Shown here one piece after another: positions 49,270 to 49,673 of a stretch of 64,000 nt of DNA. The stretch is from positions 64,001 to 128,000 of the forward strand of contig CAWAGQ010000011.1 in assembly GCA_963781585.1 (NCBI GenBank). The letters are read 5' to 3'. The notes beneath the pieces were generated by a model, which worked only from the letters and a program-made list of their open reading frames with translations, was not told the origin of the DNA and ran no database searches. Numbering within the stretch: position 1 is the first letter of the stretch; the number at the start of each line of letters is the position of its first letter. This DNA is from an uncultured Gemmatimonadaceae bacterium. Its GTDB lineage: Bacteria > Gemmatimonadota > Gemmatimonadetes > Gemmatimonadales > Gemmatimonadaceae. The position numbers and the translations under genes were made by a program.

Positions 49270-49673
49270 AGTAGCTGTGTTGAAAGTCAAGGGAGAATTG
49301 CGACGGGCGGACGCCACGCCGCGTGGGTTTTCACCATGGCATTGAGGGTCGTGAGGAGCCGACGCATACACGCCGTCAGGGCGACCTTCACCGGCTTGCC
49401 CGCCGCGCGGAGCTGGCGATACCACGGCCGCAGCACGGGATTGCAGCGACTGGCCGTGAGCGCAGCCATGTACAGCACCGCCCGCACGTGGCGTCGGCCG
49501 CCCCAGCAGCGGCGCCGGCCGCGCTGCGGGCTCCCGGAGGCCCCGGTAGCTGTGCGGGCTTCGAGCGATCGCTGCGGCGGCGCTCCTACTCTGCGACGGG
49601 CTCTCGACACCCCGGACACTAGGATCGAGCTGCCGCCGTCCCGAACCAACACTCCTTAATGAAGACATACAAG
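49270..49673 (-). mobile_element. Internally deleted IS110-family (IS621-like) element, 404 bp including both CT cores
   Basis: Recombinase C-terminus [39 protein letters not shown] (about 49535 to 49287). CT core on the minus strand at 49270-49271 and 49672-49673; removing the element restores the palindrome arm. Confidence 0.88.
49540..49660 (-). ncRNA. Bridge-RNA-like region (complete target-binding loop, truncated donor-binding loop)
   Basis: Stem GGCGGC..GCCGCC encloses AGTGTCC (49620-49614), a GGG..CCC hairpin and GCAGAG (49594-49589). CACAGCTAC (49554-49546) is identical to the element's own right end (49279-49271). Confidence 0.7.

Follow-up and report, generated by a model that had tools for sequence, protein, structure and literature searches.

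The 64,000-nucleotide stretch analysed here (positions 64,001 to 128,000 of contig CAWAGQ010000011.1, from an uncultured Gemmatimonadaceae bacterium), which is termed the window and supplies the numbering used throughout, carries on its minus strand at 49270-49673 an internally deleted insertion sequence (IS) of the IS110 group, the remnant of an RNA-guided element. With a probability of about 0.8 for identity and anatomy, we read it as a non-autonomous copy of an IS110-group element of ~1.15 kb that encodes a bridge RNA in its left end and has lost the middle of its sequence. The copy is a dead or dependent representative of a known kind of element and not a new system.

The element is 404 bases long, with the CT core at each end included. 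On the minus strand it starts (49673 downward) with CT-TGTATGTC, or CT-TGTATGTCTTC in a longer reading, and finishes with CACAGCTA-CT, or TTGACTTTCAACACAGCTA-CT in the longer reading, the final CT being 49271-49270. Both termini and both cores are retained together with 149 nt of non-coding left end (49673-49525), and the combination of a CT core at both junctions with no terminal inverted repeats, by which the IS110 group is recognised, is found here. A previous sequence-only reading of this DNA, made by a model, had proposed an element of 404 bp bounded by CT cores, with about 80 C-terminal recombinase codons and a promoter split between its two ends. The length and cores are borne out by the present sequence reading, the codon number comes to exactly 78, and the promoter coordinates are confirmed, as described below.

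The open reading frame (ORF) at 49287-49652 on the minus strand matches Pfam PF02371 with aa 38-78 (profile positions 46-86 of 87, E 3.6e-6) and the NCBIfam entry NF033542, "IS110 family RNA-guided transposase", at positions 265-341 of 343. The latter match has 42.3 bits, under the whole-protein cut-off of 140, as expected for an ORF that is only a fragment. The search for longer proteins returned 3,411 relatives among 3,911 candidates. The best of these, P0002 (311 aa), is 97% identical, and the identity after it is at most 79% among the matches listed. BLASTP aligns ORF residues 44-121 with residues 234-311 of P0002 (76/78 identities), which defines the 78 homologous codons, and the leading 43 residues of the ORF are translated non-coding left-end DNA. 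P0002 has PF01548 and PF02371 as precomputed domains and reaches 218.9 bits on NF033542. In the window element Pfam finds PF02371 only, and the N-terminal RuvC-like DEDD domain (PF01548) is absent; codons 1-233, deleted here, hold the whole of that domain. The last 41 profile positions of PF02371 are kept, and the conserved DSG motif (P0002 residues 229-231) falls in the deleted part. We take the serine of this motif to be the catalytic serine, by likeness to S241 of IS621. Judged from the profile and protein matches, the window copy is a remnant of an IS110 family member and not a working member. We also note P0177 (121 aa), apparently another internally deleted IS110 recombinase, in which an N-terminal GIDVAK motif is fused straight to the C-terminal third; its breakpoints are unlike those in the window.

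A scan of genome_contigs identified 79 related loci, the best of which is 61% identical in protein, so that neither the genome encoding P0002 nor the parent genome is part of that collection. The nearest relatives are five copies in one Gemmatimonadaceae metagenome-assembled genome (MAG), L001-L004 and L021, referred to as the L001 family. The termini of this family are those of the window element (left CT-TGTATGTCT, right TTGACTTTCAACACAGCTA-CT, with CTGACT as the first hexamer in the L001 copy): identity extends over 11 terminal bases on the left and 22 on the right. The relatives therefore share the ends of the window element, a point on which the sequence-only reading had depended. Left-end bases 31-139 of the window element are, moreover, 80.7% identical to the non-coding left end of the five-copy family (E 7e-23), and the flanks of the five copies vary except for a conserved GCGC-CT-CTGCG. 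Both ends were located by simple motifs in 67 of the 79 loci. Nearly all left ends read CT-TGTAT, and the typical right end consists of TTGAC, ~13 nt and an ACAGTTG-like segment, followed by CT. Full-length elements span 1,148-1,306 bp (n = 6 measured), and the recombinases have 306-311 aa in the two sequences checked (~306 in L001, 311 in P0002). In the plasmid collection, six records with 60-80% identity align to the coding remnant only (query 151-347), and none covers 80% of the query. Taken together, the loci document what their sequences indicate to be a compact lineage of bridge elements of ~1.15-1.3 kb in Gemmatimonadaceae, Binataceae, Dehalococcoidia, Deinococcus and other MAGs.

Comparison with the L001 copy, whose full length is 1,148 bp, gives the extent of the deletion. 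As 197 nt precede the start codon in L001 and 149 nt of left end remain in the window, ~48 nt and codons 1-233 have been lost, ~750 bp in all. The left-end homology stops at CCCGCA (49530-49525), and the protein homology begins at R234, encoded by 49523-49521. There is no CT at the deletion junction, which indicates that the junction is not a product of bridge-type recombination; deletion by such recombination between internal pseudo-sites was set aside on this ground.

The structure of the bridge RNA was derived from the relatives. RNAalifold, applied to an alignment (A1) of the left-end RNA region of 35 distinct relatives with the window excluded, predicts a 13-bp outer stem in the first loop and two stems in the second loop, and 18 of the 23 predicted pairs are compensatory. 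The covariance model R1 (144 positions, 25 pairs) was obtained by adding a 4-bp inner stem of the first loop and removing two doubtful pairs; the RNAalifold pairs 118-159 and 119-158 of A1, which join the left donor guide to the region of the right donor guide, were judged spurious. R1 has a sole significant match in the window, at 49507-49650 on the minus strand (44.4 bits, E 5e-9), the next best having E 0.13. Over the window and all loci it gives 77 matches, in which intact relatives score 75-123 bits. In the alignment of these 77 matches fitted to R1 (A2), 94.5% of the cells are paired as against 40-47% with slid partners, 21 of the 25 pairs are changed on both sides, and such pairing values were reached by 0 of 500 shuffles. 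Two loops with covarying stems, the hallmark of a bridge RNA, are thus present in the relatives.

The sequence-only reading had described a stem in the left end that encloses two loop segments, and this stem appears both in the single-sequence fold and in the alignment to the covariance model. It belongs to the first, target-binding loop, which is complete in the window element. The second, donor-binding loop is retained in its 5' half. Past CCCGCA, the window shows only gaps and mismatches where the model has AUC..GCAAG, the right donor guide, so that this guide and the closing strand are missing; the proposal that the rest of the donor loop was lost at the deletion is upheld by this result.

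Guide positions were assigned in 49 distinct insertion events (48 besides the window) by comparing the model alignment with the flanking sequences, and match statistics were compiled for 36 distinct guide sets, window excluded, with mismatched pairings as the control. The 5' side of the first loop repeats, in top-strand sense, the four to six bases that lie left of the core, followed by C. On the 3' side, which is fixed, the inner stem is followed by G, U, the five-base reverse complement of the bases right of the core, and AG, whose core-guide columns are invariant in A1. The second loop follows the same layout against the right end of the element itself. The left target guide agrees in at least four of five positions in 35/36 cognate sets and in 16.2% of 1,172 mismatched pairs; the right target guide agrees in all five in 28/36 sets and in 0.16% of 1,242 mismatched pairs; and the left donor guide agrees in all seven in 33/36 sets and in 0.24% of 844 mismatched pairs. 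The guides of the relatives covary with their flanks, as the sequence-only reading would have it. One internal mismatch (4/5) is present in the left target guide of 23 of the 36 sets. The register of this guide with respect to the inner stem varies among the 48 events (-1, 14 events; 0, 21 events; +1, 13 events), and a single fixed register, under which the left match of the sequence-only reading would be spurious, was abandoned for this reason; the register of the right target guide is fixed across the loci in A2.

The two bases after AG behave, by their covariation, as handshake guides. In the target loop, position 1 is complementary to the final right-end base in 34 of 35 rows. Its counterpart in the donor loop is complementary to the base on the left of the core in all 35 of 35, and each of G, A, U and C is represented. 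Position 2 covaries much less (14/35 in the target loop and 12/35 in the donor loop). A side observation concerns L052 (5812-5962), a copy of the L027 type that sits at a site matching its guides at only 2/5 on the left and 2/5 on the right and has the look of a natural off-target insertion.

In the window element itself, the right target guide matches its flank in 5/5 positions and the core, a result with a random-flank P of 0.002; the GCAGAG that the sequence-only reading had paired with the right half of the target is contained in this guide. The same reading had pointed to GTGTCC as a match to a repeat arm that differs by one base from the occupied site. The agreement with the arm (5/5, at 49210-49214) and with the flank (4/5, register -1) stands, and the agreement with the flank fails in the register of L001. 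The form of the left guide in the window (guide, C, G, stem) is common to the L027, L051, L053 and L061 families. The match of this guide to the flank is accordingly graded as probable, not proven. The 9-mer CACAGCTAC at 49554-49546, previously suggested to be a left donor guide copied from the right end, does recur at 49279-49271, and the guide agrees with its own right end at 7/7 as scored and 8/8 by eye. At the handshake position 1 of the target loop, U is found, besides the window, only in the L001 family, whose right end also finishes in A.

The G+C content of the window is 67.7%, and one might ask whether the likeness to a bridge RNA is a chance product of GC-rich DNA next to an ordinary truncated transposase pseudogene. 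The folding energy of the left end is no better than that of shuffled sequences, an Rfam scan of 48500-50500 gave no family (three matches with E 7.7-9.9, far under the gathering scores), and the window has no excess of predicted cognate 12-mers (12 observed against 11.7 expected in one register and 4 against 7.0 in another), so that no target family resembling repetitive extragenic palindromes is visible in the 64 kb. These results would suit a chance resemblance. In our reading it is refuted by the R1 match, which is unique in the window, by the homology of the left end to that of the intact five-copy element, and by the guides, of which one repeats eight bases of the element's own right end and another fits the right flank throughout. 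We assign it next to no probability.

When the ends are joined, the minus strand reads TTGACT, 17 nt and TATGTC. Among 44 distinct right-end/left-end junctions, the hexamer at the -35 position agrees with TTGACA in at least five of six bases in 27 and at least four in 35, and that at the -10 position agrees with TATAAT in at least three of six bases in 42 and at least four in 23. The -10 hexamer of the window is among the weaker ones (3/6) and is without the final T. The predicted split junction promoter thus sits at a fixed position across the family and fits the published junction promoter of IS110 elements. The features of the window element are collected in Table 1.

Table 1. Features of the IS110-group remnant and of its insertion site, in window coordinates.
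Feature	Position	Strand	Basis
Whole internally deleted element	49270..49673	-	sequence reading; ends same as in the five-copy L001 family
CT core, left-end junction (AG on + strand)	49672..49673	-	sequence reading and related loci
CT core, right-end junction	49270..49271	-	sequence reading and related loci
Left target flank GTGAC	49674..49678	-	sequence reading
Right target flank CTGCG	49265..49269	-	sequence reading
-10-like hexamer TATGTC, 3/6 to TATAAT	49664..49669	-	fixed position in relatives
-35 hexamer TTGACT, overlapping the recombinase stop codon	49285..49290	-	fixed position in relatives
Target-binding loop, complete: outer stem 49637-49627/49586-49576 and inner hairpin	49576..49637	-	R1, minimum free energy fold, covariation
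Left target guide GUGUC + C (first core base)	49614..49619	-	4/5 to flank GTGAC, register -1
Right target guide CGCAG + AG (core guide)	49589..49595	-	reverse complement CT-CTGCG equals right flank, 5/5 + core
Handshake dinucleotide UA, target loop	49587..49588	-	complements last two bases TA of right end, 2/2
Donor-binding loop, retained 5' half: GCCC (49559-49556), left donor guide, inner hairpin	49527..49559	-	R1 alignment
Left donor guide CACAGCTA + C	49546..49554	-	identical to right end 49279-49271
Deletion junction	49523..49526	-	limits of left-end and protein homology; ~2 nt uncertainty
Recombinase remnant, 78 C-terminal codons + stop TGA	49287..49523	-	PF02371, NF033542, BLASTP to P0002
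Unoccupied near-cognate site GTGTC-CT-CCGCG, other palindrome arm	49210..49221	+	left 5/5, right 4/5

The element lies between an ogt-type methyltransferase gene (49793-50350, PF01035, E 2.5e-33) and a 958-aa ORF (46240-49116), which has no Pfam match at E 0.001; all three are on the same strand. When the element is removed in silico, its target falls in the 5' arm of an imperfect stem of 15 bp, and the other arm of this palindrome carries the unoccupied near-cognate site. An outer inverted repeat of 25 nt (49174-49198/49688-49712, 76% complementary) flanks the insertion site and the inner palindrome, and the entire spacer downstream of ogt is a long imperfect palindrome.

Several observations were made on the relatives in their own right. 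L028 (5022-6406) has two matches to the bridge-RNA model 1,234 nt apart, which points to tandem or nested copies. L072 (6001-6954) has a recombinase gene with no bridge-RNA match upstream of it; the matches at this locus are at 956-1106, ~5 kb upstream, and at 9516-9666, ~3.5 kb downstream. In L060 (5744-5958), from a Deinococcus MAG, the donor-binding loop contains ~70 inserted nt that directly precede the left donor guide, and the model score is 47.9 bits as compared with 83 in sister copies. The Dehalococcoidia copies L056, L064, L065 and L066 (upstream of 6001) differ in that ~2 to 6 tandem units of 15 nt, read through as MTTGT-like repeats, separate the bridge RNA from the point at which the recombinase ORF has its conserved start.

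These features suggest how the copy came to its site. A full-length element, or possibly this short form, would have entered one arm of the imperfect intergenic palindrome at its CT core by bridge-RNA-guided recombination, with a perfect right target guide and one mismatch in the left. As the sequence shows, a deletion of ~750 bp took away codons 1-233 and, from the donor loop, the 3' half with the right donor guide, the handshake guide that belongs to it and the closing strand. The termini, the halves of the split promoter, the complete target loop, the left donor guide and 78 codons are left over. Since neither the recombinase nor a full bridge RNA can be encoded by what remains, any movement of the copy would require a full-length relative as the source of both. 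Deletion in place, with the copy now inert, is in our estimation somewhat more probable than the contrary.

Several points weigh against this reading or parts of it. The breakpoints were set by homology and not by direct comparison, because no closer relative than one of 61% protein identity is present in genome_contigs. The motifs with which the ends of the relatives were located presuppose CT and conserved termini, and the pair counts in A2 lean toward structure because that alignment was fitted to the model. R1 can pair the outer stem of the donor loop with downstream coding bases (GG.GC), and the loss of this stem is therefore not absolute. The single-sequence fold of -55 kcal/mol has z = -0.15, and 83 of 200 shuffles are at least as stable; single-sequence folding was discarded as evidence on this account, and the fold nonetheless recovers the stems of the first loop. 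Finally, when the left target guide is read as it is in L001, where the guide is followed by C, C, one base and the stem, it is GUGU and agrees at 0/5, and a match of 4/5 in any of three registers has a random-flank P of only 0.037.

An alternative to deletion in place is that the 404-base form is itself mobile in the manner of a MITE, a miniature transposable element with inverted repeats, the deletion having arisen once and the short form having been copied to this site in trans, with recombinase and full bridge RNA from a full-length relative in the same genome. The intact termini, cores and promoter halves fit this proposal, as none of the cis parts that a donor is known to require is missing, and in the IS621 study a 22-bp donor with the bridge RNA in trans is reported to suffice (PMC11208160). 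Precedents are also available: MITEPpu9, with eight copies, is tied to the IS110-family element ISPpu9 (PMC12288879), and ISPpu10 has been described as trans-acting. P0002 shows that a near-identical full-length recombinase exists somewhere. The several copies that such a form should leave are, however, represented in the 64 kb by one: blastn of 49170-49773 against the window gave the self match only, the next hit having E 0.032. Nor was a protein of 66-212 aa found that spans the deletion junction, the best of 383 matches among 529 candidates having 69% identity over 64% of the query, and the antisense ORF had no match among 201 candidates. Of the 150 best stretches from the representative library, 143 begin at query residue 30 or later; the identity in these 150 is at most 68%, and none reaches E 1e-30. 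Searches for junction-spanning proteins depend on gene calling and are weak tests. Hu et al. report, for their assay, that elements with truncated recombinases were inactive (10.64898/2026.08.14.744561). With one copy in the window and no junction-spanning protein in the databases searched, a remnant deleted in place is favoured, and a mobilised short form is considered unlikely.

Another explanation holds that the remnant has been kept as a source of an RNA with the target loop only, which would cooperate or compete with the full-size bridge RNA in active relatives. In its favour, the target loop survives whole, guides and handshake bases included, in an otherwise decayed copy, and an abundant RNA with the target-binding loop (TBL) only is reported for CazIS110-1 to support a "direct-transfer" first step (10.1101/2025.10.25.684509). 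Against this, the integrated state shows no promoter-like site (0 in 49000-49950), the junction promoter would be confined to the circle, and a single deletion that cut the donor loop and spared the target loop accounts for the pattern with no need of selection. A TBL-only RNA from this copy is a speculation, and its retention for such a function appears exceedingly improbable to us. The sequence-only reading had raised both mobilisation in trans and such an RNA, and neither drew support from the tests made here. A bolder version, to which we give little credence, combines both ideas: the short form would be a living satellite that is copied in trans, makes a target-loop-only RNA (GTGTC-CT-CTGCG) from the circle or by read-through from ogt, and partners the parent's bridge RNA in direct transfer. 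If so, the parent recombinase would gain a second, separately encoded choice of target.

As it stands, this remnant matters little, since truncated copies of insertion sequences are nothing unusual and good descriptions of bridge RNAs exist. The literature already covers not only bridge RNAs and junction promoters but also action in trans, a MITE-like element linked to IS110, and TBL-only RNAs. Its modest value is that, together with the 79 related loci, it lets all guide classes, handshake bases included, be deduced from insertions in nature. Given a host and a parent copy, a DNA copy of natural origin with the target loop only would also be a test case for the reports that TBL-only RNAs participate in transposition.

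Among known systems, the closest counterpart is IS621 of the IS110 group, for which a shared CT core and a two-loop RNA in the left end are described (Durrant et al. 2024, PMC11208160; Hiraizumi et al. 2024, PMC11208158). As in IS621, the -35 element is in the right end and the -10 element in the left end, and they are joined in the circle only. The polarity is also that given for IS621, in which left guides pair with the bottom strand and right guides with the top strand, core included (PMC11208160), and handshake bases follow the right guides (PMC11208158). Unlike IS621, the window copy is devoid of the N-terminal two thirds of the recombinase and has a donor loop without its 3' half. With 311 aa in P0002 and ~306 aa in L001, the recombinases of this family are shorter than that of IS621, which has 326 aa. 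The left target pairing is short here in comparison with IS621, 4-5 bases and the core, and its register shifts by one base among relatives. This comparison was made with the published rules for IS621.

MITEPpu9 of Pseudomonas putida, associated with ISPpu9, is likewise a short non-autonomous unit with ends of the IS110 type (Pares-Guillen et al. 2025, PMC12288879). It is thought to use the transposase in trans, and some arrangements retain a piece of the 3' end of tnp (PMC12288879). In contrast to the single window element with its truncated bridge RNA, MITEPpu9 is described as having eight copies in KT2440 and its own small RNA gene, ssr9. No sequence relation between the two was found, the plasmid search being the sole test. 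Insertions at half-matched or off-target sites have been reported (Xie et al. 2026, 10.64898/2026.08.31.748434; Hu et al. 2026, 10.64898/2026.08.14.744561), and the window insertion likewise fits better on the right (5/5) than on the left (4/5). Natural sites usually have 0-2 mismatches (PMC11208160), and with one mismatch the window insertion need not be a half-match event. The TBL-only RNA of CazIS110-1 (Sun et al. 2025, 10.1101/2025.10.25.684509), for which the preprint cites earlier TBL-only transposition, contains the target loop only, which is at most what the remnant could encode. In that report the short RNA was measured and comes from an intact element, whereas in the window element the DNA itself is truncated.

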